Program-made: the position numbers and the translations under genes
The notes under the pieces: generated by a model
What the model saw: only the letters and a program-made list of their open reading frames with translations
What the model was told of the DNA's origin: nothing
Databases searched by the model: none
Shown here: positions 3,254-39,848 of the stretch, piece by piece
How positions within the stretch are numbered: position 1 is the stretch's first letter
Layout of the letters: every line of letters begins with the position of its first letter
Virus record (IMG/VR): IMGVR_UViG_2773857716_000001
Location: 1 to 64,000 of that record
Source: a virus
Taxonomy: Duplodnaviria > Caudoviricetes
DNA: 64,000 nucleotides
Strand: one strand, 5' to 3'

Positions 3254-4145
3254 CATGCCGATGCCGCGTCGTCCCCACCTCCACCTCCACCGGCATCACC
3301 TGCCGCAGCACATGAAACTGCGTCCCATCCCGCATCCACTCCACCCCGCCCACCGCGTCACCTGCGACCTCCAGGGCCTGCGCCAGCAGCCCCGACAACG
3401 CCACATCCAGCGGCGTCGACAGCAACAGCCGGCCGCCTCCCACATCCACGACGGCGCGCTTCGGCCGGGACGCCGCACCGGTGAAGCCGACGGCCACCGC
3501 GTCCTGCGCCCGCGCGTGCCGGACCTTCACCCACGCCCGCCGGCCCGCCGCATACCGTCCGCTGGTCCGCTTCGCGACGATCCCCTCAATGCCCTGCCCG
3601 CGCAGGGCCTCCAGCCACTCCAGGGCCTCGCCCCGGTCGGTGGTGGACGGCACGGCCTGGAGGGGCGGCCCCAGTGGCCCCAGGACAGCCAGGAGCCGTT
3701 CGCGGCGCTCCTCGTACGGCCGCGCCCGCAAATCCTCACCCTCCACCGCCAGAGCATCGAACGCCGCGTACGAGGCGGGCAGTTGCGAGGCCAGAAGCCG
3801 GGCCCGCAGCGGTGACGACAGGGCCCGCTGCTGCACCGCGGTGAAGTCCACGTGGCCTTCCTGGTAGATGACGGCCTCCCCGTCGAGGACCGTGCCCGGC
3901 GGTAGCTGCTCGGCGGCCTGTGCGAGGTCGGGGAAGTGGGCGGTCACTGAGCGGTGGGAGCGGCCGGCCTGGAGTCGTGCGCGGCCTTCCTGGGGGCGGG
4001 CCACGATGACGCGGTGCCCGTCGAACTTCGGCTCGTATGCCCAGCCGGGCCCGGACGGTAGGTCGGTGGCGGCTTCGGCGAGGGCGACGGTCGCGGGCAG
4101 TCGGAGTGGCATGCCAGGGCAACGAGGGCCGGTGGTGGTCGTCAC
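3219..4145 (-). CDS. ATP-dependent DNA ligase (LigC/LigD ligase-domain type)
   Basis: Motif I YEPKFDGHR, LDGE, AFDAL, EGIVAK, WVKVR; true start may be at MPLRLP. Confidence 0.88.
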   Translation of the reverse strand: MTTTTGPRCPGMPLRLPATVALAEAATDLPSGPGWAYEPKFDGHRVIVARPQEGRARLQAGRSHRSVTAHFPDLAQAAEQLPPGTVLDGEAVIYQEGHVDFTAVQQRALSSPLRARLLASQLPASYAAFDALAVEGEDLRARPYEERRERLLAVLGPLGPPLQAVPSTTDRGEALEWLEALRGQGIEGIVAKRTSGRYAAGRRAWVKVRHARAQDAVAVGFTGAASRPKRAVVDVGGGRLLLSTPLDVALSGLLAQALEVAGDAVGGVEWMRDGTQFHVLRQVMPVEVEVGTTRHRHVTVRRLRPDLG

Positions 4146-4167
4146 CGTGGCGTGGGCCGTACGAACA

Positions 4168-4210
4168 CTTCACTGAACCTGTTGTGCAGACCCTCGAAAT
4201 CTGTCATGCT
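4168..4210 (+). promoter_or_regulatory. 43-bp conserved promoter/operator module, copy 1
   Basis: CTTCACTGAACCTGTTGTG-nnn-ACCCTCGAAATCTGTCATGCT-type motif containing TTGTGn-N17-CATGCT; also at 17734-17776 and 23702-23744. Confidence 0.8.
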
Positions 4211-4240
4211 GTTCTCAAGCAGACAACAGGGGAGCCCCGC

Positions 4241-4603
4241 ATGGACACCACCCGCTACTCCGTCACCCTCACCCGCCCCGGCTACACCACCATCGCCCTC
4301 GGCCCCTACTCCATCCGCGGCGTCGCCGACCTGACCGCCTGGAACCTCACCCACCACCTCCGCGACCAGGCCGACGCCCAGGTCGACGTCGAGCCCCACG
4401 ACGAAACGCTGGAACACCTCCCCGAGCTGCCCACCACCCCGCAGGAACTCGCCACGGTCCTGGCCAACGAACCCGCCACCACCGACCGGCTCGACATCTA
4501 CGCCCGCCTCGCCGCCCAAGTCGGCGGCCCCGAGTCCCGCAAGCTGCTGGCCGACGCCTACATGCGATGCGCAGTCGCCCTCTGGCCCGAAATCGCCGGC
4601 TGA
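4241..4603 (+). CDS. Hypothetical protein
   Basis: GGGGAG RBS just downstream of the conserved promoter. Confidence 0.7.
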   Translation: MDTTRYSVTLTRPGYTTIALGPYSIRGVADLTAWNLTHHLRDQADAQVDVEPHDETLEHLPELPTTPQELATVLANEPATTDRLDIYARLAAQVGGPESRKLLADAYMRCAVALWPEIAG

Positions 4604-4683
4604 CCACCACCGACCGCGGCCCGCGCCCTCACCCCCAGGCGCGGGCCGCCCCAATCCTTGCAACACCAGCAGGAGGCAGCGTC

Positions 4684-4956
4684 ATGACACACAAGCTCTC
4701 CAGCCAAGTCCTCACCGCCCTCTTCGGCCACATCCCCCAGCACGTCACCGAAGCCCGCGACGACTTCCTCACCGCCAAGAACCGCTGGCGCTGGGCTCAA
4801 GAAGAACTCCGCCGCAACAACGGCGAGGACCCTGAGTGGACGCAGGCACTCCACGAGGAGCGCACCGAGGCCTTCCGCGACATGCGGACCGCGGGCGACG
4901 TCGTTACCGCGTTCAGCCCGAGCCTCGCGCGCTCCCTCTTCAACGCCTCGCACTGA
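4684..4956 (+). CDS. Hypothetical protein
   Basis: AGGAGG RBS, GC3 bias. Confidence 0.7.
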   Translation: MTHKLSSQVLTALFGHIPQHVTEARDDFLTAKNRWRWAQEELRRNNGEDPEWTQALHEERTEAFRDMRTAGDVVTAFSPSLARSLFNASH

Positions 4957-5021
4957 CCCACGCCGGGGCAACGCCCCGCACCAAACCGCGACAGCATGGA
5001 CACCCGCCCAAGGAGCCCCGC

Positions 5022-5519
5022 ATGACCGCCGCTACCTGGCCGTTCGGAACCGACGCCGACCGCGACGACCCACTCACCGCCCTGCGCATCCCCGTCACTG
5101 GTACCCACCCCAAGTGGCACTACATCGCCACCTTCGACCGCGGCTCCGAGGCCCGCCCCACCGACGCCGAGGCAAGGATGCTCGCCAGCTTCATTGAGGA
5201 GTACAAGGAGTACTTCTTCAACGACTCCTACAAGGCCAAGCTGCTGAAACGTCCGCTCGACGTCGACGCCGTCACCAAGATCTTCCACAAGTGGGGTGAC
5301 AGTGACTGGTCATACCGCGTCGTCACCTGGCAGTACGGCCCCTTCTGGGTCCCGGTCTCCCCGCGGCTTCGAGGCGGAGAGTTCGAGTACGACCTGCTGC
5401 CCGCGCACACGCTGGAGCAGGTCATGGACCGCTGCCACAGCATGCACACCGAATACCCCAGCAAGCACTGGGCGGAGTGGAAGGCCAGCCACCCCGAGAC
5501 CTTCGGGGATGACCAGTGA
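5022..5519 (+). CDS. Hypothetical phage protein
   Basis: AGGAG RBS before MTAATWP; GC3 bias. Confidence 0.75.
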   Translation: MTAATWPFGTDADRDDPLTALRIPVTGTHPKWHYIATFDRGSEARPTDAEARMLASFIEEYKEYFFNDSYKAKLLKRPLDVDAVTKIFHKWGDSDWSYRVVTWQYGPFWVPVSPRLRGGEFEYDLLPAHTLEQVMDRCHSMHTEYPSKHWAEWKASHPETFGDDQ

Positions 5520-5749
5520 CCAGCCACGCCCTCGACGCCGCCGGCGGCCCCACGCTCACCGACTGGCTCGACACCGACGAGCACCGCGACCAGGCCTGGA
5601 ACCTCCACCAGCACATCGCCGACCGCGAAGGCCCGTACGCCGCGGCCGCGTGGCTCATCGGCGCCAGCACCCGCCCCACCCGCAACGGGCACAGCACAGA
5701 CGCCCGCGCAGCCGCACACGCCCACATCAACGCCCGGGAGCAGCAGTGA
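5516..5749 (+). CDS. Hypothetical protein
   Basis: GTGA-coupled; ends EQQ*. Confidence 0.65.
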   Translation: MTSHALDAAGGPTLTDWLDTDEHRDQAWNLHQHIADREGPYAAAAWLIGASTRPTRNGHSTDARAAAHAHINAREQQ

Positions 5750-5931
5750 CCAGCACCCACCCCGAGCAGGCCACCGACGAGCAGGTAGAACAGCTCGCCC
5801 GCGGCCTCGCCGGCGCAGCCCACATCAACCCGCAGCGCACCGCGCCGCCATGGGACCAGCTCACCCCCGAACAGCAGGACCAGCACCGGTCAGAAGCACG
5901 ACGCAGCAGCAGCGCTGAGGAGGAGCGGTGA
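5746..5931 (+). CDS. Hypothetical protein
   Basis: GTGA-coupled at both ends. Confidence 0.55.
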   Translation: MTSTHPEQATDEQVEQLARGLAGAAHINPQRTAPPWDQLTPEQQDQHRSEARRSSSAEEER

Positions 5932-6245
5932 TTGTCACGCTGGCCGTGATCGCCGCCCTGGCCGTCGGGTACCTCGCTGGCCGCACCCGCCCGATCGAAG
6001 CCCTCGACAACCGCCTCAATCCCTGGATCTGGAAGCAGGCCCGCCACGCCAGCGCCAAGCGGCACCCCGGTTGGTGGATCGCTCAGATCTACTTCCTCGG
6101 CTTCATCCTCATCCACCCGATCCAGGCCATGAGTAACCGCCGGGAAAACCAGCGTCGGCGTGCTGAATCGGCCCAAACGCCATGTTTCAAGCCTGCCTTC
6201 GACCCGAACTGGGCCGTCAACCGGACCAAGAAGGAGCAGCAGTGA
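5928..6245 (+). CDS. Membrane protein
   Basis: N-terminal and central hydrophobic segments; ends EQQ*. Confidence 0.65.
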   Translation: MIVTLAVIAALAVGYLAGRTRPIEALDNRLNPWIWKQARHASAKRHPGWWIAQIYFLGFILIHPIQAMSNRRENQRRRAESAQTPCFKPAFDPNWAVNRTKKEQQ

Positions 6246-6727
6246 CCAACACCATCCCTGACTCCCTCGCCAGCTACCTGCAGCAGCGACAGGCCGCCCA
6301 CGCCGACAGGGTCCGCGCCGTTCTCGCCGCCCTCACCGGCTGGGAGCAGGCGCTGGTCCATGACGCAGCCGTCATGGGCTACGTCCAGGGCATGCGGCAC
6401 CCCGAGGGCGAGCCCATCGGCAAGGACCGGCAGACCATCGCCCACGTCATCGACGCCTGCTTGGCGTTCCCCGACCTCTACCCGGCGATCAAATCTCTCG
6501 AGGCTTCCACGGAACGGCGGGAGACTGTCGAGTATTTCGTCCAGTGCCAGCAGCCCGACGGCACGTGGGAGCAGGCCGGCGGCACGACCCAGAACCCCGC
6601 CCTCGTCCTCCAGCGACTCGCCGCGCGCCGCCGGGCGCAGCCGGACTTCGAGTACCGCATCGCCCGGCGCACCACTACAGCCCGCGTCGTGACGTTCGAT
6701 GTGGCCGACAGCGAGGAGCAGCAGTGA
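6242..6727 (+). CDS. Hypothetical protein
   Basis: GTGA-coupled; ends EQQ*. Confidence 0.7.
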   Translation: MTNTIPDSLASYLQQRQAAHADRVRAVLAALTGWEQALVHDAAVMGYVQGMRHPEGEPIGKDRQTIAHVIDACLAFPDLYPAIKSLEASTERRETVEYFVQCQQPDGTWEQAGGTTQNPALVLQRLAARRRAQPDFEYRIARRTTTARVVTFDVADSEEQQ

Positions 6728-7215
6728 CCGACGACCTGCGGCAGCGCATCGCCTCCGCCATGGCGGAGGCTGCCGGAAGCCGCGCGTTCCGCAACACCGA
6801 CCCGGCATGGAACCACATGCGGTCCATCTGGCTCGCCCACGCCGACGCCGCCCTCGGCTCCCTCCGCCCCGAGCTGAAGCAGCTGCGGACCCGCGCCTGG
6901 AAGGCGGAACGTGCCGTCAACCTCCTCGCTGGCTCCCACCGCCGAGCCGAACAAGCCGAGGCGACCATCGCCCGCGCTGCGGAACGCCTGGCTGTATGGG
7001 AGCAGCGACTCCCCGAGACCGTGAAGCTCGCGCCCATCATCGAGACGGTCCGCCGCGACCTCGGCATCGAGGAGGCGTCGTGCGCCGAGTGCGGGCATCC
7101 CAAAGACCAGCACCAGGACGCGGACGAGCCCGTATCTGTCGGCCTGTGCACCGTGTGCGACCAGGCTGGCAGCGACGACGCCTGGCACAACTACGAACCC
7201 CAGGAGCAGCAGTGA
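6724..7215 (+). CDS. Hypothetical protein with C-terminal CxxCxH zinc motif
   Basis: CAECGHPKDQH...CTVC; ends EQQ*. Confidence 0.7.
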   Translation: MTDDLRQRIASAMAEAAGSRAFRNTDPAWNHMRSIWLAHADAALGSLRPELKQLRTRAWKAERAVNLLAGSHRRAEQAEATIARAAERLAVWEQRLPETVKLAPIIETVRRDLGIEEASCAECGHPKDQHQDADEPVSVGLCTVCDQAGSDDAWHNYEPQEQQ

Positions 7216-7382
7216 CCGACCCTATCGACCAGCACCTCGCGGACAGCGCCGCCCGCACCGAGACCGACCACGTGCTGGACCGGCTCACCGCCGACAACGA
7301 CCGGATGCTCGCCGCCCTCGACGAGGTCATCGACGTCGAGGCCGGCCTCCAGCAGATCCTCGACCGCGCCAAGGAGGCGTGA
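7212..7382 (+). CDS. Small acidic hypothetical protein
   Basis: GTGA-coupled; C-terminus duplicated at the window start. Confidence 0.65.
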   Translation: MTDPIDQHLADSAARTETDHVLDRLTADNDRMLAALDEVIDVEAGLQQILDRAKEA

Positions 7383-7384
7383 TG
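7331..7384 (+). repeat. 54-bp direct repeat, copy 2
   Basis: 52/54 identical to 9-62. Confidence 0.9.
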
Positions 7385-7762
7385 CCCGCGACGCGTCGAA
7401 CGGGGCGTGACCGGCGTGACGGCCGAGTGAGCGCTGGGTGAGGGTTCGATGACCGACAGCAATAGAATTCAGCCAGACGCGACAGCAGCAACACGGCCTG
7501 CTACACCTGACGTCAACACGCCCGTGGCATATGCACGCAACGCAAAAATCGACTGCCGCCCGACGGCCCAGCCACCGGCCAGCTGCGAATGACCGGAGCG
7601 GGCCGCCGGCGCTGACAGCCCAGACAAGCCCGCTCCACAACAGGCCCGCCCGTCACCCGCGTTACCGGCGACACCGCCATCATTGGCGAATATTCAACCG
7701 AATACATCAGCGAATCCTTCCTAGGAAGAACACCCCAACAAAGCCCCGCCCCAGGAGAACGC

Positions 7763-8599
7763 TTGGACAGCACCGCGCTCGCCGGCCTACTCGAGGCCCG
7801 CCGTGCCCTCATAGACCCGGCGACCGTCCCCGGCATCCAGGTCGCCCAAAACCCCGGACGCCGAGCCGCAGGCCGAGGCCTCACCCAGTCCCACGTCGAC
7901 CAAATGGCCGGCTACGACAACAACACCTACAACCGCCTCATCAACGGCAAAATCCACAACCCCAGCTTCAAGCTCCTCCGCGCCTACGCCAACGCACTCC
8001 GCCTTACCGAGCAAGAGTGGGTGGCCATGTGCCGCTACGCCCGCGGCGACGACCCCAACAGCCGCCTCCACCCCCGCTCAGGCCTCGAAGTGCCCGGCAT
8101 GTGGAAGGACGTCATCGACGGCAGCCGGCACATGGCGTACATCACCGACCAGTCGTACAACCTCCTCGCCCACAACGAGCCTTTCGTCAGCCTGTTCGCC
8201 CACCAGCAACCGCCGCCGAACATGATGGAGTGGATGTTGCTGTCCGATGAGGCACGCACCACCCTCACGGGCTGGAAGACCGTCTGGACGCCGTACGTCC
8301 TGCCACAGCTACGCGGAGCGCGCGCCATCCTGCCCGACGACGAAACCCTCGCCCGCATCGAGGACGCCGTCATCAAGGACACCGAATGCGGACCGCTGTA
8401 CGAGGAGCGCTCCACCGCCCAGGTCCACCCCGACGGGCAGGAACGCCCCCTCCTCCACCCCACGCTCGGGCCGTGCTGGGTGCAGATCTGCGCGGCAGAG
8501 CCCCTGTCCAGCCCCAACGCCCGGGTCATGTTCGTGAAGCTGAACCCCGGCGCCGACCCCTCACAGATACGCCGCCCCTACCTACGAGCCGCGGCTTGA
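7763..8599 (+). CDS. MmyB-family transcriptional regulator (XRE HTH plus PAS-like ligand-binding domain)
   Basis: LLEARRALIDP...GRR..RGLTQ..V N-terminus, HTH, then AYITDQSYNLLAHN, NMMEWML and HPTLG, typical of the MmyB/MltR LBD; TTG start with AGGAG. Confidence 0.88.
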   Translation: MDSTALAGLLEARRALIDPATVPGIQVAQNPGRRAAGRGLTQSHVDQMAGYDNNTYNRLINGKIHNPSFKLLRAYANALRLTEQEWVAMCRYARGDDPNSRLHPRSGLEVPGMWKDVIDGSRHMAYITDQSYNLLAHNEPFVSLFAHQQPPPNMMEWMLLSDEARTTLTGWKTVWTPYVLPQLRGARAILPDDETLARIEDAVIKDTECGPLYEERSTAQVHPDGQERPLLHPTLGPCWVQICAAEPLSSPNARVMFVKLNPGADPSQIRRPYLRAAA

Positions 8600-8669
8600 T
8601 CACGGCCCGCCCGAGGCACACCGGGCGGGCCATCGCCGTATCGTGAAGGCTTCACCAGGGGGAGGCCTC

Positions 8670-9719
8670 ATGCCCGTGCACGTCACCCGCCCCACCATCG
8701 ACCATCCCAACCACTGGGCCACGACCGACGACATCTGCGACAACATCACCCAGCACCACCCCGACCACCCCAAACTCGGGACCGTGCTGCGCGTCATCCG
8801 CAACACCGGCGTCCAACGCCGTGCACTCCACCACCCCCTGGAATCCGAGCAGATATCCGGCAGCCTGGGTGTCGCCGACCGCAACCAGCAGGCGTGGGAC
8901 GACGCATCGAGCCTCGCCGAAACCGCCGCCGAGAGGGCCCTCGAGGAAGCCGGCCTCCAGCCGAGCGACATCACCGCGATCGTCACCAGCAACACCACCA
9001 GCTGGGCCGCCCCCGGCCTCGACGTCCACCTCGTCGAGCAGCTGCGCCTGCGCCCCGACGCCCGCCGCATCGCCCTCGCCACCGTCGGCTGTATTGGCGG
9101 CGCCCAGGCCCTCACCCGCGCCGCGGACCTCGTCGCCGCGCACCCGGGCGCCCGCGTCCTTGTCGTCGTGTCCGAGGCCCTGTCCACGATCTACCACCAC
9201 GGGGACACGTCGATGGAGTCGATGATCTACAAGGCGTTGTTCGGAGACGCCGCCTCTGCCTGCATCGTCACCGCCGACCAGCTCCAGCCGGGCATGCGCA
9301 TCGACGACACCTGGGAATATCTCCTCCCCCACTCCCGCGAACGCTACTGGGGCCGCATCGACGAGGCGGGCATTCACTTCGACTCCACCCGCGCCGCGAC
9401 CACCGCACCCACTGACGCCATGCCCGCCCTGCGTGACTGGCTCAAGCAGCACGACGGCCTCGCCCCGGCCTTCGCGGTCATCCACGCCGGCGGACCCGCC
9501 ATCCTCAACGCCGCCCAGAAAGGCCTCGGCCTCACCGCGGCACAGCTCACCCACTCCTGGGCCAGCCTCGCGCAGGTGGGCAACCTCGGCGGCGCCTCCG
9601 TCCTCGACGTGCTGCGCCGCACCCACGACACCCCACCAGCCGACGGGGACCGCGGCGTCACGCTCGCCTACGGGCCAGGGTTCGCCACCACCGCACTCAC
9701 CGGCACCTGGGTCAGCTGA
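8670..9719 (+). CDS. Type III polyketide synthase (RppA/PhlD-like chalcone synthase family)
   Basis: Catalytic triad motifs GCIGG (Cys), HAGG (His), GNLGG (Asn); LFGDAA and YGPGF; N-terminal HPDHP..LRVIRNTGV as in RppA; GGAGG RBS. Confidence 0.93.
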   Translation: MPVHVTRPTIDHPNHWATTDDICDNITQHHPDHPKLGTVLRVIRNTGVQRRALHHPLESEQISGSLGVADRNQQAWDDASSLAETAAERALEEAGLQPSDITAIVTSNTTSWAAPGLDVHLVEQLRLRPDARRIALATVGCIGGAQALTRAADLVAAHPGARVLVVVSEALSTIYHHGDTSMESMIYKALFGDAASACIVTADQLQPGMRIDDTWEYLLPHSRERYWGRIDEAGIHFDSTRAATTAPTDAMPALRDWLKQHDGLAPAFAVIHAGGPAILNAAQKGLGLTAAQLTHSWASLAQVGNLGGASVLDVLRRTHDTPPADGDRGVTLAYGPGFATTALTGTWVS

Positions 9720-9748
9720 CCGCCCCCTTCCGACCGCGCCCTGGTAGG

Positions 9749-9778
9749 GGCAATGAATCCGGCGAACCGCGCCAGCAT
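9749..9778 (+). promoter_or_regulatory. Putative promoter GGCAAT-N18-CAGCAT (leaderless)
   Basis: Matches 2008-2037 in sequence and spacing; ATG at 9785 lies 6 nt downstream. Confidence 0.55.
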
Positions 9779-9784
9779 GGGGAC

Positions 9785-10105
9785 ATGGCCCCTTCCCCTG
9801 AACCCCAGCCCGACCGCATCGTCCTCAACGACGCCACCATCTGGCCCACCATCGCCGAGACACCCCGACGCCAACAGCTCTGCGACTGGCTCACCGCCAA
9901 CGGCATCGACTACCAGAACGTCGCCGTGCCCGACCCGCTGACCGTGGAAACCGTCCCGGACGGCCAGCGCATCATCCGGCACACCGTCTACCTGCTCACC
10001 GATGACGGTTACCGGTACACCGACCCCAACGACCCCAACCAGGCCGCCCGCGAGGAACGCACGGCGCCCCTTCTCGTCGAGCCGCCAGCCGAGGAGCAGC
10101 AGTGA
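9785..10105 (+). CDS. Hypothetical phage protein
   Basis: GC3 bias; ends EQQ*. Confidence 0.7.
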   Translation: MAPSPEPQPDRIVLNDATIWPTIAETPRRQQLCDWLTANGIDYQNVAVPDPLTVETVPDGQRIIRHTVYLLTDDGYRYTDPNDPNQAAREERTAPLLVEPPAEEQQ

Positions 10106-10671
10106 CGCAGCACCACGCGCCCGCCTGGGCGATCGACCTCGTCATAGCCCTCCAGCAGCACGAAGACGAGCACCCCGACAACGGCACCACCTGCCTCATC
10201 GACCCGCTGAACGCCGTCCCCGAAGACGCCCGGAACGCCGCGCAGATCATCGCCGCCTACCGCCAGCAGAGCCCACCACCCGACCTGAAGAAGCAACTCG
10301 ACGAGGCCGAGAACCAGGCCCGCGGATGGGAGCAGAAGTACTTCGAGCTGGGCGAGAAGCGCTCCGAGGCCCTGGCCGCCATCGACCGGGTGCAGAACGT
10401 CTCCACCGCACCTGAGGCCATGGACGCCAACGAGCCTGACCGTGGCAGCTACCTTCGTGGCTACAAGCATGGCGTGCTCGCCGCCAAGTCCGCGCTTCGC
10501 TCCCCGACCGAGCCGTCCGCCACGTCCGCCAATCACCCGTGCACGCACTGCACTCACCCAAAGAGCGCGCACATCGCCGACCCGGTCTGGTGCCGCCACT
10601 GCCCACCCGATACCAGCTACGTCGCCGCCCCGGGCTGGCATCAGTACGATCCAGTCGAGGAGCAACGGTAA
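10102..10671 (+). CDS. Hypothetical protein with coiled coil and CxxCxH motif
   Basis: GTGA-coupled; CTHCTHPKSAH...CRHC. Confidence 0.7.
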   Translation: MTQHHAPAWAIDLVIALQQHEDEHPDNGTTCLIDPLNAVPEDARNAAQIIAAYRQQSPPPDLKKQLDEAENQARGWEQKYFELGEKRSEALAAIDRVQNVSTAPEAMDANEPDRGSYLRGYKHGVLAAKSALRSPTEPSATSANHPCTHCTHPKSAHIADPVWCRHCPPDTSYVAAPGWHQYDPVEEQR

Positions 10672-10805
10672 GCGACCGGGCCAGCAGCATCATCGGCGCG
10701 GTCCTGGGCGTGGCTGTCGGCGGCATCCTCACCGTGTACGGGGTGCGTGTCGCCATCGACTGGGCCATCGCGCGAGCCGTGCAGGCTGGCTGAGACACTG
10801 CCGGG

Positions 10806-11105
10806 GTGCCGGCCCCACCCGAGCCCCACGAGGCCGTCGAAGCCACACCCTGGGCGCCCGGCCAGGGCCCTTCGCCCACCGTGCAGACGTGGCCGCGGAC
10901 GAGCCGGCCCGCGCTCCGCGTCTTCATCCGCGGCCAGTGGCGACGCTGCCCCGTCATCGCCGTGCACCGGTACCGGGACGGCCGGACCGCGGTGCAGGTC
11001 GACGTGCACCTGGACAGTGACACCAGCTATCAGGCCCGCACCTACCGCTGGGACCCCGACGCCATGCGCATCGCCGCCGCTGGGGACCCGCCGCTCGAGC
11101 CGTGA
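10806..11105 (+). CDS. Hypothetical protein
   Basis: GC3 bias; beta-rich small domain. Confidence 0.6.
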   Translation: MPAPPEPHEAVEATPWAPGQGPSPTVQTWPRTSRPALRVFIRGQWRRCPVIAVHRYRDGRTAVQVDVHLDSDTSYQARTYRWDPDAMRIAAAGDPPLEP

Positions 11106-11192
11106 ACGTGGGGCGCCACACCGTCCGAGGAAGAAAGCGCCGCGGCACGACGAAGCCCCACCCAGTTCGGGCGGTGCGTCTCGGTACGTGGA

Positions 11193-12425
11193 TCAATCCG
11201 ACGGCTCCCTGCCAGGGTGGTGGTTTGAGCGATGCGGCAACCCGAGAGCCCTCTTCCAGTTCTCCACCGTCCCCAGGCTCACCCCCAGCTCCGCGGCGAT
11301 CTGCGTCGCCGTGAAACTGGGACTGGCCCACAGTTCCCGAAGCTGGCGCTCCACTTCGGGGTCAGAGATCTGAGGGCGAGCAGCATACGGGCGCCTGGGC
11401 TGCGTAAGCAGGCCCCGCTTCCGCGCCGCCACGCGCTCACGAACTTCGCGCCGCATGCGCTCAAGACACTCACGTCGAGCCTCATCCAGCCTCGCCCTAA
11501 ACTCAGGGTCAGCTCTCAATCTCTTCAGGCGACCAAGGGGTAACCCGCATCGCCTGGCAGCCTCGGCGAACGCCACGGGCTCCTGCTCGAAGATCTCCAC
11601 CAGCTGGGCGACGAAGCTCTCGTCTGTGCGCGCCGCCGCGTCGCCGCCTGTCCGACGGCTCGGGAGATCGAGCTTCCTGCGCCACCTGCTGATGGTCTGC
11701 GGGTGGACGCTGAACCGTTCTGCGATCTCGGAGATCGGGACTGAGGGGTCAGACCATGCGGCACGCAGGCTAGCCACCTCCTCTGCCGTCAGCTGCGAGA
11801 GCGGGGTCTGGTCCTGCCATCGCGCCGCGATGAACGCCGCATTCAGGTCCGGATGTTCCCGCCGCCATTTGTCGACCTTGAAGCGGCTAACGTCCGGGCC
11901 TGCCGCCTCCAGAGCATCCGGGATGGAACACCCCTGCTTCAGCAGCGCAGTGAAGCGATCCGGGGGAGACATGGAAGCGAGCTTGAAATGCCGCTCCAGA
12001 GCCACGAATGACGGGCAGTGCCGCCACTCGGAGGGCCCTGCGGGTGCCTGCTCAGGGCTGGCGGACCCCTTGAGCGCGAGAAGGTATGCGCACGCCGCCT
12101 CCACGGCCTCGATCAAGTCGCCGCCGCCGTCCGGGGTGTCTTCGTGGCGGGCGATGGCGGCAGCGAGACGCGGATGTCCAGGCGCCGAGGCCCGCACCCG
12201 CTTCGGCGGCACCCCGACTGAACGCGACGCCTCGGGCAGGGTCATCCCCAGGTCCATCTGCTCCGCGACACGGTCGAGCAGGGCGGATGGCGGGGCGTTC
12301 TTGCGGCGGCGCGCCTCCTTGGTCTCGTCGTTGTGCGCCCGCCGGCAGTCAACGCACCGCCCGCCGAGCCGCCAACCGTAAGGGGTCCCGCAGTGCTTCG
12401 TAGGCGCCTCGCACGACCCCGCCAC
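11193..12425 (-). CDS. Multi-HTH DNA-binding protein with N-terminal zinc finger
   Basis: HCGTPYGW...RCVDCR motif and several HTH repeats (ISEIAERFSVHPQTISRW, ATQIAAELGVSLGTVENW); GTG overlaps the upstream TAG. Confidence 0.75.
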   Translation of the reverse strand: MAGSCEAPTKHCGTPYGWRLGGRCVDCRRAHNDETKEARRRKNAPPSALLDRVAEQMDLGMTLPEASRSVGVPPKRVRASAPGHPRLAAAIARHEDTPDGGGDLIEAVEAACAYLLALKGSASPEQAPAGPSEWRHCPSFVALERHFKLASMSPPDRFTALLKQGCSIPDALEAAGPDVSRFKVDKWRREHPDLNAAFIAARWQDQTPLSQLTAEEVASLRAAWSDPSVPISEIAERFSVHPQTISRWRRKLDLPSRRTGGDAAARTDESFVAQLVEIFEQEPVAFAEAARRCGLPLGRLKRLRADPEFRARLDEARRECLERMRREVRERVAARKRGLLTQPRRPYAARPQISDPEVERQLRELWASPSFTATQIAAELGVSLGTVENWKRALGLPHRSNHHPGREPSD

Positions 12426-12895
12426 TAGACGGCTCCGTTGCGCAGTTCTCGTCCGCGCGCCGCCTGTGGCGCCGAGCCGGACGCCACTTCCACGTCGGAC
12501 GCGTAGGCGATGCGCAGCGCCGGCACCTCCTGGGCGACGCGGGCCACCACCGCCCGGTGCCACGCCGCGGGAAACGGGACCTCCGGATGCGCGGCGTGGT
12601 ACTCCTCATCCGTCCGGTAGGTCACTGCCCCCGGTTCCGGCGTGTCCATCAACTGGTCGACGATGCCGCCCACGAACTCGCCGGTGCGCCGCTCCAGATC
12701 CTCCACCTCAAGTCGGACGCCGTCGGGGATGGCGTACTTGCCAGCCTCCCAGTGCCGCACGGTGCGGGCGGACACGCCCAGGTGCTGTCCGAGCCACTCC
12801 GGGGTGACGTTCAGGTACTCGCGGACCACGCGCAGTTCGGCGTCCGTCATCCGCTCGTCCTCCGGCATGCCGGGCGGGTCGGTGTAGTCGGTCAT
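12425..12895 (-). CDS. DUF1870 / Aca2-YdiL-like HTH regulator
   Basis: MTDAELRVVREYLNVTPEWLGQHLGVSARTVRHWEAGKYAIP plus C-terminal TYRTDEEY...WHRAVVARV, resembling DUF1870/Aca2. Confidence 0.7.
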   Translation of the reverse strand: MTDYTDPPGMPEDERMTDAELRVVREYLNVTPEWLGQHLGVSARTVRHWEAGKYAIPDGVRLEVEDLERRTGEFVGGIVDQLMDTPEPGAVTYRTDEEYHAAHPEVPFPAAWHRAVVARVAQEVPALRIAYASDVEVASGSAPQAARGRELRNGAV

Positions 12896-12951
12896 TGGGT
12901 CCTCCATGCGAAGGCGGCCCCAGGGGGCACCTGGGGCCGCGGGCGGTTCGG

Positions 12952-13257
12952 TCAGTTGGTGGCGCGGGAGACGGTGACGACGCCGCCCGTGGGGACGGGC
13001 TCCCAGTCGCCTTCAACGGTCCAGCCGGCAGCCTCCAGGAGGCTCTGCGCTTCCTTCTCGGCGCGGCCGGTACTGCTGTCAGCGGCGGGAACTCCGGTCA
13101 CCGCGTGGAACAGCGGGTCGCCCTGGGAGGACCAAGCGCCGTCGTTCGCAGGGTTGTCGCCGATGAGTTCGTCCTCCAGGACGGTGACGTCGATGTTGGG
13201 CTGGTCCAGGCAGGAGGCGTCGGTGGTGAGCCAGGCGGTGAAGTGAGTGGTGGTCAT
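12952..13257 (-). CDS. Small acidic hypothetical protein (candidate anti-defence protein)
   Basis: GGAAGGA RBS, about 101 aa, D/E-rich, immediately upstream of the Aca2-like gene. Confidence 0.7.
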   Translation of the reverse strand: MTTTHFTAWLTTDASCLDQPNIDVTVLEDELIGDNPANDGAWSSQGDPLFHAVTGVPAADSSTGRAEKEAQSLLEAAGWTVEGDWEPVPTGGVVTVSRATN

Positions 13258-14038: not shown

Positions 14039-14665
14039 TTACGTGTACGACGGTAGCCGGATCGCCGCCAACCTGGCCAGGAGTTCCGCCCCGGCCGGAT
14101 CCGCCGGTCCGACGTTGGCCCGCAGCAGCTCCAGCAGCCGGTCCGCGGGAAACAGGGCGACGCCGCGCACGCGGAACCCTGCGCCGTCTACCGGGGCGTT
14201 GTGCACCACGATCAGCGGCGTCACCGGCACACCACCCAGCGCCTTCGACACCTCCCTCGTCTCCCACAGCGCCGTATCGACCTGCCGGTCCCGGTCGGCG
14301 CCGCCGTGCATCAGCCGGCCACCGACGAGGCGCACCACCCGCGGCTGACCTTCTTCGTCCCGCGCAGCCCACAGCTTCGAGTCCAGCGTGAACACCTGCC
14401 CGTCCCGCCCGACCAGCACGTGGTCGACGTTCGCCGACCGCCCCACGCGCCGGTCCGGCAGCACATGCCAGCCCTCGCGCAGCAGCGGTTGGAGCATGGC
14501 GTGGGTGCGCTTCTCCCCGACCGAGCCCGCTGCGCAGCGCTCCCTGTGGCGGCGCTTGCGGCCCATCTCCGGCGTCTCCACACCCACCGCGGCCACCAGG
14601 TGCTGCCACCACCGCAGACGCCCCTGCTCGCGGCCCCACGCGGCCGCAGACTGTCCCGCGATCAC
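14039..14665 (-). CDS. NERD-domain (PD-D/ExK) nuclease
   Basis: GSVGEKRT...ANVDHVLVGRDGQVFTLDSKLW. Confidence 0.85.
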   Translation of the reverse strand: MIAGQSAAAWGREQGRLRWWQHLVAAVGVETPEMGRKRRHRERCAAGSVGEKRTHAMLQPLLREGWHVLPDRRVGRSANVDHVLVGRDGQVFTLDSKLWAARDEEGQPRVVRLVGGRLMHGGADRDRQVDTALWETREVSKALGGVPVTPLIVVHNAPVDGAGFRVRGVALFPADRLLELLRANVGPADPAGAELLARLAAIRLPSYT

Positions 14666-15126
14666 CGCCTACCTCCCGCAGCAACGACGCCCGCGGCGAT
14701 GGCGATCCAGCCCTTATGCCACGCCTGGTCGATCCGGTAGCCGGCCTGTGGGTCCCGGGTGAGCCAGCCGCCCTTCCTCGCCCGGTGCGCGGCGCGGACC
14801 ATCCGCGTCGTCGGCTGCTTCTCGGGGTCTTCGGCCCAGCGTCCGCCGGAGCGATCCGCGGCGTAGTGCGTGACGGCGGAGACGAGGAGCCCGGCCGTGG
14901 CGTAGCGCCAGTTGAGGCGCAGCCCCAGGCCGCGGTCCGCGGCCACGAGTGCGAGGGCCTGCGTGGCGGTGTACGAGGCGACGTGGCGCAGGCACGCGAC
15001 GCGGCCCTTGGCGCCCTCCTTCCCTTTGTCGACGGCATCCTCATCGACCTGCACGATGTGGTCGGCGACCTCATGCGCGGCCGTCAGGGCGGCGTACGCG
15101 GCGGAGAACTGTACGGCGCGATTCAC
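14662..15126 (-). CDS. Membrane protein (DUF3307-like)
   Basis: HEVADHIVQ, HVASY, THYAADR, DQAWH motifs with TM segments. Confidence 0.7.
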   Translation of the reverse strand: MNRAVQFSAAYAALTAAHEVADHIVQVDEDAVDKGKEGAKGRVACLRHVASYTATQALALVAADRGLGLRLNWRYATAGLLVSAVTHYAADRSGGRWAEDPEKQPTTRMVRAAHRARKGGWLTRDPQAGYRIDQAWHKGWIAIAAGVVAAGGRR

Positions 15127-17733: not shown

Positions 17734-17776
17734 AGCATGACAGATTTCGAGGGTCCACACAACAGGTTCAGTGAAG
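17734..17776 (-). promoter_or_regulatory. 43-bp conserved promoter/operator module, copy 2
   Basis: 41/43 identical to 4168-4210 (reverse complement). Confidence 0.8.
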
Positions 17777-23701: not shown

Positions 23702-23744
23702 AGCATGACAGATTTCGAGGGTTAACACAACAGGTTCAGTGAAG
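23702..23744 (-). promoter_or_regulatory. 43-bp conserved promoter/operator module, copy 3
   Basis: 40/43 identical to 4168-4210 (reverse complement), differing only in the central 3 nt. Confidence 0.8.
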
Positions 23745-39783: not shown

Positions 39784-39810
39784 GAACCTGTTTGCTTAAC
39801 ACCAGGTTCA
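39784..39810. promoter_or_regulatory. Inverted GAACCTG operator pair in a divergent promoter region
   Basis: GAACCTG-N12-CAGGTTC; the same core sits in the 43-bp promoter modules. Confidence 0.5.
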
Positions 39811-39848
39811 ATGTAGTGTGGGGTTACGTCCTACCGAGGAGCGCCCCA

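Follow-up and report, generated by a model that had tools for sequence, protein, structure and literature searches.

The 64,000-nucleotide stretch analyzed here (hereafter the window) is the first 64 kb of IMG/VR virus record IMGVR_UViG_2773857716_000001, a 92,558-bp record rated complete (~69% G+C), and carries two adjacent genes that encode a regulator of the MmyB family (7763-8599, + strand; 278 aa) and a polyketide synthase (PKS) of type III (8670-9719, + strand; 349 aa). We propose, with a probability of roughly 75%, that these two genes form an alpha-pyrone cassette of the vioB/vioA kind, self-contained and able to move horizontally, which travels as accessory cargo of a Streptomyces plasmid-phage of the pZL12 family. 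Judged from sequence, the pair appears to be a diverged copy of the published vioB and vioA genes and not new in kind.

The published system provides the functional reference for this interpretation. VioA is a type III PKS encoded on a circular plasmid of about 85 kb in S. somaliensis SCSIO ZH66, and production of violapyrone B is abolished in a vioA knockout (PMC4924298); VioA alone is reported to be sufficient for violapyrone production. The XRE-family gene that adjoins it, vioB, was assigned as a negative regulator because its deletion raises the yield of violapyrone B about eightfold, and the open reading frames (ORFs) flanking vioBA proved dispensable, so that the cluster is taken to comprise two genes (PMC4924298). 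The same report describes the cluster as silent until the developmental regulator wblA was deleted (PMC4924298). A later study grouped VioA with Cpz6, DpyA and Gcs, inferred that it combines beta-ketoacyl starters with extension by methyl- or ethylmalonyl-coenzyme A (CoA), and identified vioAB loci in 21 further genomes (PMC5898002).

In all comparisons we used pCQ3.110c and pCQ4.19c, which are 95% identical to VioA and VioB, respectively (PMC4924298, Table 1), as stand-ins for these two proteins. The window PKS aligns with pCQ3.110c at 50% identity over 351 columns (324 bits); for the window regulator and pCQ4.19c the identity is 49%. Mutagenesis of VioA has indicated that I174, Y229 and S242 matter for activity, with L190 also probed (PMC5898002). 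When these positions are mapped via pCQ3.110c, they align with I174, Y226, S239 and L190 of the window PKS, so that all four residues are kept; S239 is invariant across the family alignment.

The synthase and the regulator

The window PKS is a type III PKS of the chalcone/stilbene synthase superfamily, with matches to Chal_sti_synt_N (PF00195, 91.5 bits) and Chal_sti_synt_C (PF02797, 42.6 bits) that both exceed their cut-offs of 27. Its catalytic triad, Cys141, His272 and Asn305, is invariant in 47/47 aligned homologues and aligns with the corresponding Cys, His and Asn motifs of two Protein Data Bank (PDB) entries, 1u0m and 3v7i. These entries are also its sequence matches in the PDB, at about 173 bits each (E 1.3e-49 for 3v7i, a chain of Gcs), far below the score of 324 bits obtained with the VioA proxy. 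We take 1u0m to be the S. coelicolor tetrahydroxynaphthalene (THN) synthase RppA; its PDB title reads 'putative polyketide synthase'. Of the NCBIfam models, DpgA scores best with the PKS, yet its 106 bits fall short of the cut-off of 425; no PhlD model was matched, and a PHROG search with the protein returned no family.

The ORF as called runs from a GTG at 8643 to 9719 (+) and adds nine residues that have no counterpart in homologues. The real start is most likely the ATG at 8670, 27 nt inside the called ORF and behind the ribosome-binding site GGGGGAGG (8658-8665, +). Initiation at this codon gives a protein of 349 aa, which is the length of the database protein (P0001) and agrees with the 349-350 aa of the homologues.

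The regulator gene begins with a TTG codon preceded by AGGAG 8 nt upstream, and its product belongs to the MmyB family, with both an XRE-type helix-turn-helix (HTH_3, 31.1 bits; cut-off 23) and a PAS-like ligand-binding domain (MLTR_LBD, PF17765, 39.9 bits; cut-off 26.3). A search of the PDB with its sequence found no match at the sequence level. Its AlphaFold2 model, built with 30 homologues as input (predicted local distance difference test score 88.6), was compared with the PDB using Foldseek, and the best match was MltR (3pxp), which covers the full length of the protein (287 columns, E 6.5e-10, probability 1.00); the matches that follow are PAS domains. The PAS-like pocket of MltR held a fatty acid (PMC3406030). 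Neither the regulator gene nor the PKS gene contains a TTA codon. The sequence-only reading from which this work started had described an intact type III PKS with a Cys-His-Asn triad beside an MmyB-family regulator with XRE and ligand-binding domains. Both gene identities are borne out by these results, and its expectation of a small pyrone product is upheld by analogy with vioB/vioA, at about 50% identity.

The host element and the distribution of the pair

The window carries genes for tape-measure and minor tail proteins, tail fibres, a ParA-like protein, an integrase of the tyrosine recombinase type and DNA methyltransferases, and the remainder of the record carries portal, major head and large terminase genes. 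By tblastn, 46 of 108 heuristically called genes match Streptomyces phage ZL12 (pZL12) in the same order. From its genes alone, we therefore assign the host element to the pZL12 family of Streptomyces plasmid-phages, elements that reportedly alternate between a plasmid state and a lytic cycle. The phage-plasmid setting suggested earlier is thus confirmed by structural, packaging and partition genes that lie together on one element colinear with ZL12. Five circular Streptomyces plasmids of about 90 kb match the element at the DNA level, and the pair is present in all five. A megablast of positions 5000-13000 against the INPHARED phages returned nothing, and ZL12 surfaced at the protein level only; this phage has a regulator-PKS pair of its own, pZL12.99 and pZL12.100, in the corresponding position. 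A PKS has been noted before on pZL12 and on pSLE1 of S. leeuwenhoekii, where it was judged to lie outside any cluster (PMC4487206).

The minimal two-gene layout that had been described also stands: genes for a P450, tailoring enzymes or transporters were not seen in the region from about 4.8 to 11.1 kb, and four neighbouring ORFs that were tested matched no Pfam family and no PHROG.

A survey of species-representative genomes found 171 stretches that encode a relative of the PKS, of which the best 80 loci were analyzed. The regulator lies directly upstream on the same strand, at a distance of 62-384 bp, in 76/80 of these loci. The four exceptions without an adjoining vioB-like regulator include Actinomadura barringtoniae and Lentzea californiensis, both outside the Streptomycetaceae. 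Judged by identical contig numbers, the PKS locus and a pZL12-type portal share a contig in 10/80 loci. A pZL12-type portal is absent at E <= 1e-20 from 62 of 78 genomes. Four loci that were sampled sit between ordinary chromosomal flanks, different from one another, which include TetR regulators, an asparaginase, an acyl-CoA dehydrogenase, an alpha-galactosidase, a CLC channel and a LytR-family protein. In Streptomyces sp. CA-181903 a second MmyB-type regulator (MLTR_LBD, 39.8 bits) lies at 7068-7934 (-) of the extracted stretch, convergent with and just downstream of a chromosomal PKS. In Streptomyces sp. NPDC005898 the PKS locus (179,518-192,555) and a pZL12-type portal (272,610-274,271) are about 80 kb apart on a contig of 467,688 bp, which may represent an integrated or co-assembled phage-plasmid.

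Among PLSDB plasmids, 88 records carry a relative of the PKS and 69 a relative of the regulator; tabulation by hand covered 60 records of each set. Among the matches listed, 36 of the 60 PKS records have a co-oriented regulator gene no more than 1.3 kb upstream. A pZL12-type portal is present in 34 plasmids, and at least 26 of these also carry both genes. The other eight show no pair among the matches listed, in keeping with an accessory status of the pair. Two of them, pSAM1 and CP109172, were checked directly and lack both genes; since weaker matches may fall outside those listed, the remaining six could still hold diverged copies. The flanking protein encoded at 14662-15126 (-) was also searched for in pSAM1 and CP109172, and nothing was found.

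Phage-like carriers extend beyond those with a recognizable portal. The 102-kb circular plasmid CP109332 (NZ_CP109332.1) carries the pair together with holin, ERF, RusA, WhiB, HNH, ParAB and tyrosine recombinase genes, and a search of it for a pZL12-type portal and large terminase gave no match. Either a mosaic phage-plasmid whose head module is of another type or a phage-plasmid in decay may be represented here. As this plasmid is phage-like yet portal-negative, the figure of 10/80 phage-plasmid loci is a lower bound. Two replicons, NZ_CP108296 of S. melanogenes (linear, 92.6 kb) and NZ_CP109039 (linear, 223 kb), encode a vioB-like regulator without any PKS. In both, the regulator gene occupies 3935-4771 of the extracted stretch and is followed by a 76-aa ORF and then by parA-parB 0.8-1.9 kb further on; the CP108296 protein is 48% identical to the window regulator. 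Members of the regulator family can thus occur apart from the synthase. Taken together, these surveys show that the pair behaves as a unit that is present or absent together and is spread over many replicon types.

To place the window PKS among its relatives, a quick maximum-likelihood tree was built from 88 family members, which do not include Gcs, RppA, Cpz6, DpyA or the pCQ3 protein used as VioA proxy. The phage-plasmid label changes eight times on this tree, with at least six changes forced, and is clustered without forming one clade. The window PKS falls in a clade of nine members with 100% support, eight of which are borne by phage-plasmids; the ZL12 and pCQ4 PKSs lie outside it. The Actinomadura barringtoniae PKS nests within the clade of the window PKS with 99% support, a placement that hints at transfer across families. 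Pairwise comparison with six close relatives gives ratios of nonsynonymous to synonymous substitution rates (dN/dS) of 0.25-0.48 (PKS) and 0.39-0.92 (regulator), values that are inflated by the strong GC bias at third codon positions. The corresponding dN of the regulator (0.18-0.49) is about twice that of the PKS (0.09-0.24). The two parts of the regulator diverge equally, with mean identities of 58.3% for the DNA-binding and 59.3% for the ligand-binding part, and this comparison is not informative.

Candidate control sites

A non-coding stretch of 380 bp precedes the regulator gene. Upstream of the gene lies an AT-rich island (7677-7730, +), one of 20 stretches in the 92.5-kb element with no more than 40% GC in 30 nt, which is a candidate promoter or operator. 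Within it are the palindromes GAATATTC (7688-7695) and TTCCTAGGAA (7718-7727), each of which occurs only once in the element. By eye, and uncounted, an AT-rich inverted repeat (TTTTC...GAAAA or CTTT...AAAG) is seen at the same relative place in most of the relatives inspected, from all contexts, and in many of these a TAGnnT-like hexamer follows downstream.

The two genes are co-oriented, with a gap of 70 bp between the stop codon of the regulator and the ATG at 8670. Just 3' of the stop codon is a GC-rich hairpin (8604-8631, +) with a perfect 10-bp stem and an 8-nt loop, for which a folding energy of -25.9 kcal/mol was calculated (z -2.97; one of 200 shuffles is as stable). It is a possible terminator or insulator between the two genes. 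It lacks a T tract and was not called by a simple terminator scan, and when conservation of its sequence was looked for in relatives none was found. A candidate control region for the PKS follows at 8639-8665 (+) and comprises a -10-like hexamer, TATCGT (8639-8644, +), the palindrome GTGAAGgCTTCAC (8643-8655, +), whose exact form is unique in the window and which, not enriched at two mismatches (four found, 1.89 expected), is a candidate site, and the ribosome-binding site described above. By eye, most of the relatives inspected have a TAnnnT hexamer 35-50 nt ahead of the PKS start codon; pCQ4 is among them, even though two small genes come between its regulator and PKS genes. As the hexamer is kept in pCQ4 despite this insertion, we infer that the two genes probably each have their own promoter. 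The motif GTGAAGNCTTCAC was found four times at no more than two mismatches, against an expectation of 1.89, and 15 of 100 shuffles gave as many matches; this count is not significant and the motif is treated as a candidate site only. A simple sigma-70 scan of 7200-9900 gave no promoter-like sites.

Two other repeated sequences were observed in the window. A promoter-like module of about 40 nt, CACTGAACCTGTTGTG ... CGAAATCTGTCATGCT, occurs in three exact copies, at 4171-4210 (+), 17734-17773 (-) and 23702-23741 (-), with a weaker copy at 39798-39813 (-), and none of 100 shuffles gave as many matches. The copy at 4171-4210 points into the + strand gene array that ends 380 bp before the regulator. 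The module does not align with the region upstream of the regulator, and no copy was found near 7383-8670 at up to three mismatches. A 14-nt junction, GGAGCAGCAGTGAC, is present five times at boundaries of the small-gene array (5738-5751, 6234-6247, 6716-6729, 7204-7217 and 10094-10107). At these joints the upstream gene ends in ...EQQ* and the GTG of the next gene overlaps its TGA stop codon, an arrangement that reads as a repeated translational-coupling joint.

Role of the cassette and comparison with known systems

By analogy with VioA, the window PKS would take beta-ketoacyl starters, bound to CoA or to an acyl carrier protein, from the fatty-acid metabolism of the host, extend them once with methylmalonyl- or ethylmalonyl-CoA, and lactonise the chain to give 3-alkyl-4-hydroxy-6-alkyl-2-pyrones. 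A dimer of the regulator would bind in the vicinity of its own promoter, of the PKS promoter or of both, and could hold PKS transcription down until a lipid-like ligand fills the PAS-like pocket. The most likely pay-off, which is also the weakest step of this scheme, would be a form of lysogenic conversion, in which a diffusible pyrone with antibacterial or allelopathic action, produced by carrier mycelium, aids the persistence of host and element.

Several points weigh against this interpretation. The ecological pay-off is speculative, and the product, expression and DNA binding of the window pair are extended to it from a homologue; at 50% identity to VioA, the choice of starter and extender may differ. 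Members of the MmyB/MltR family are described as ligand-activated activators (PMC3406030), whereas VioB, the tested relative of the window regulator, is reported to act negatively, and the sign of regulation in the window pair is therefore an extrapolation from one knockout. The palindromes that we point to as candidate operators are not statistically enriched, and only visual inspection speaks for their conservation. Characterized outgroup enzymes are missing from the PKS tree, and the placement of VioA itself is taken from the text on Fig. 2 of PMC5898002. Finally, the high dN/dS of the regulator could reflect relaxed constraint.

Among the alternatives, manipulation of host development, which the sequence-only reading also raised, is unlikely, although it fares best. 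In this case a germicidin-like product would keep the carrier, or streptomycetes in its neighbourhood, from germinating or growing. Germicidin, a 3,6-dialkyl-4-hydroxy-2-pyrone, inhibits spore germination. The clustering of VioA with Gcs and their shared substrate logic (PMC5898002), the match of the window PKS to the Gcs chain 3v7i, and the silence of the vio cluster before deletion of wblA (PMC4924298) are in keeping with such a role. Set against this, the available text of the violapyrone papers gives no germination data (PMC4924298; PMC5898002), VioA and the window PKS carry Tyr and Ser at the two compared positions where Gcs has His261 and Met274 (PMC5898002), and the wide chromosomal spread of the cassette offers no phage-specific reason for it.

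A more speculative idea, to which we attach little weight, is that the alkyl-pyrone is itself the ligand of the adjacent regulator. The pair would then form a portable autoinducer loop, which on the phage-plasmid would report the density of carrier mycelium or hold neighbouring spores dormant, and so tune when the element remains a plasmid or spreads. If this were true, the fast-evolving regulator would mark diverging signal specificities between phage-plasmid lineages.

The sequence-only reading had proposed a phage communication circuit, in which the PKS would make a diffusible signal for the regulator, which in turn would set the choice between the lytic and plasmid states, with the logic of arbitrium or LuxI/LuxR. 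Alpha-pyrones do serve as bacterial signals in Photorhabdus. The tight linkage of a synthase to a ligand-binding regulator (76/80 loci), the predicted PAS-like pocket, whose counterpart in MltR contained a fatty acid (PMC3406030), the predominance of phage-plasmids in the clade of the window PKS, and the faster evolution of the regulator relative to the synthase, which can be a trait of receptors where signals diversify, all lend this proposal some appeal. A regulator that binds lipids beside a synthase of alkyl-pyrones would make a plausible pair of sensor and producer. A system of this type would be expected to be specific to its lineage and conserved within it, and this is not the distribution that we find. 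The pair lies mostly outside pZL12-type elements, as seen in the 62/78 genomes without a portal of this type at the threshold used and in the four sampled chromosomal loci, and it is missing among the matches listed from 8/34 portal-bearing plasmids, two of them verified. Within the 92.5-kb element the candidate operator palindromes occur only beside the pair, the three-copy promoter module was not found near it, and the regulator of the tested homologue, as reported, affects only pyrone yield (PMC4924298). A cassette that is common outside phages, missing in some close relatives and for which no regulator-linked motif was found elsewhere in the element argues against a role as a life-cycle switch; we found nothing that supports a tie between the pair and the lysis-versus-plasmid decision, and regard the circuit as quite improbable.

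A different class of product, phloroglucinol or THN made from malonyl-CoA alone, is very improbable: names such as 'PhlD', 'THN synthase' and 'naringenin-chalcone synthase' appear in databases, and the PDB match to 1u0m is as strong as that to 3v7i, but the VioA proxy is a far better match than either chain, DpgA scores far below its cut-off and no PhlD model was matched, and all four VioA-specific residues are kept.

The preferred reading is a mobile vioB/vioA-type cassette borne as accessory cargo, and for the window it brings no new type of system. The cassette appears as a free-moving two-gene unit on chromosomes, other plasmids and phage-plasmids alike, and this distribution sets a sober prior for claims of phage small-molecule communication. 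To our knowledge, phages seldom carry biosynthetic genes. Among the prophages of actinobacteria surveyed by Sharma et al. (2023, PMC10023795), type III PKSs are reported only in plasmid prophages. Table S9 of that survey, which covers prophages with type III PKSs, and Table S3 of PMC5898002, which covers vioAB genomes, may list relatives of the element. Among the titles and abstracts searched, none links violapyrone to phage, or phage-plasmids to Streptomyces polyketide synthases. For the published homologue, a single gene is reportedly enough to yield the product in a standard Streptomyces host.

Of the known systems, vioB-vioA is the closest in organization. In both, an XRE/MmyB-type regulator lies directly upstream of a type III PKS of about 350 aa in a two-gene unit, and the catalytic triad and the four probed residues are common to VioA and the window PKS. 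The vioBA carrier is a circular plasmid of about 85 kb, with neighbours that match genes of pCQ3 and pCQ4. The two systems differ in sequence, with about 50% identity for both proteins as measured through the pCQ3 and pCQ4 proteins. In the available text of the vioAB papers the carrier is treated simply as a plasmid and phage is unmentioned (PMC4924298; PMC5898002); the present comparison ties violapyrone chemistry to the pZL12 plasmid-phage family. pZL12/ZL12 (GQ919031) itself belongs to the same element family and has the same pair at the same relative place, although its PKS is 50-51% and its regulator 46-47% identical to those of the window, and the small genes around the pair differ. The window regulator shares with MltR (3pxp) an N-terminal XRE helix-turn-helix, a C-terminal PAS-like ligand-binding domain and a predicted fold that matches over its full length, at only 20% sequence identity. 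Gcs (3v7i) has the same superfamily and triad and makes 3,6-dialkyl-4-hydroxy-2-pyrones from beta-ketoacyl starters (PMC5898002), and differs in the Tyr/Ser positions noted above; both Gcs and 1u0m are more distant from the window PKS than the VioA proxy is.

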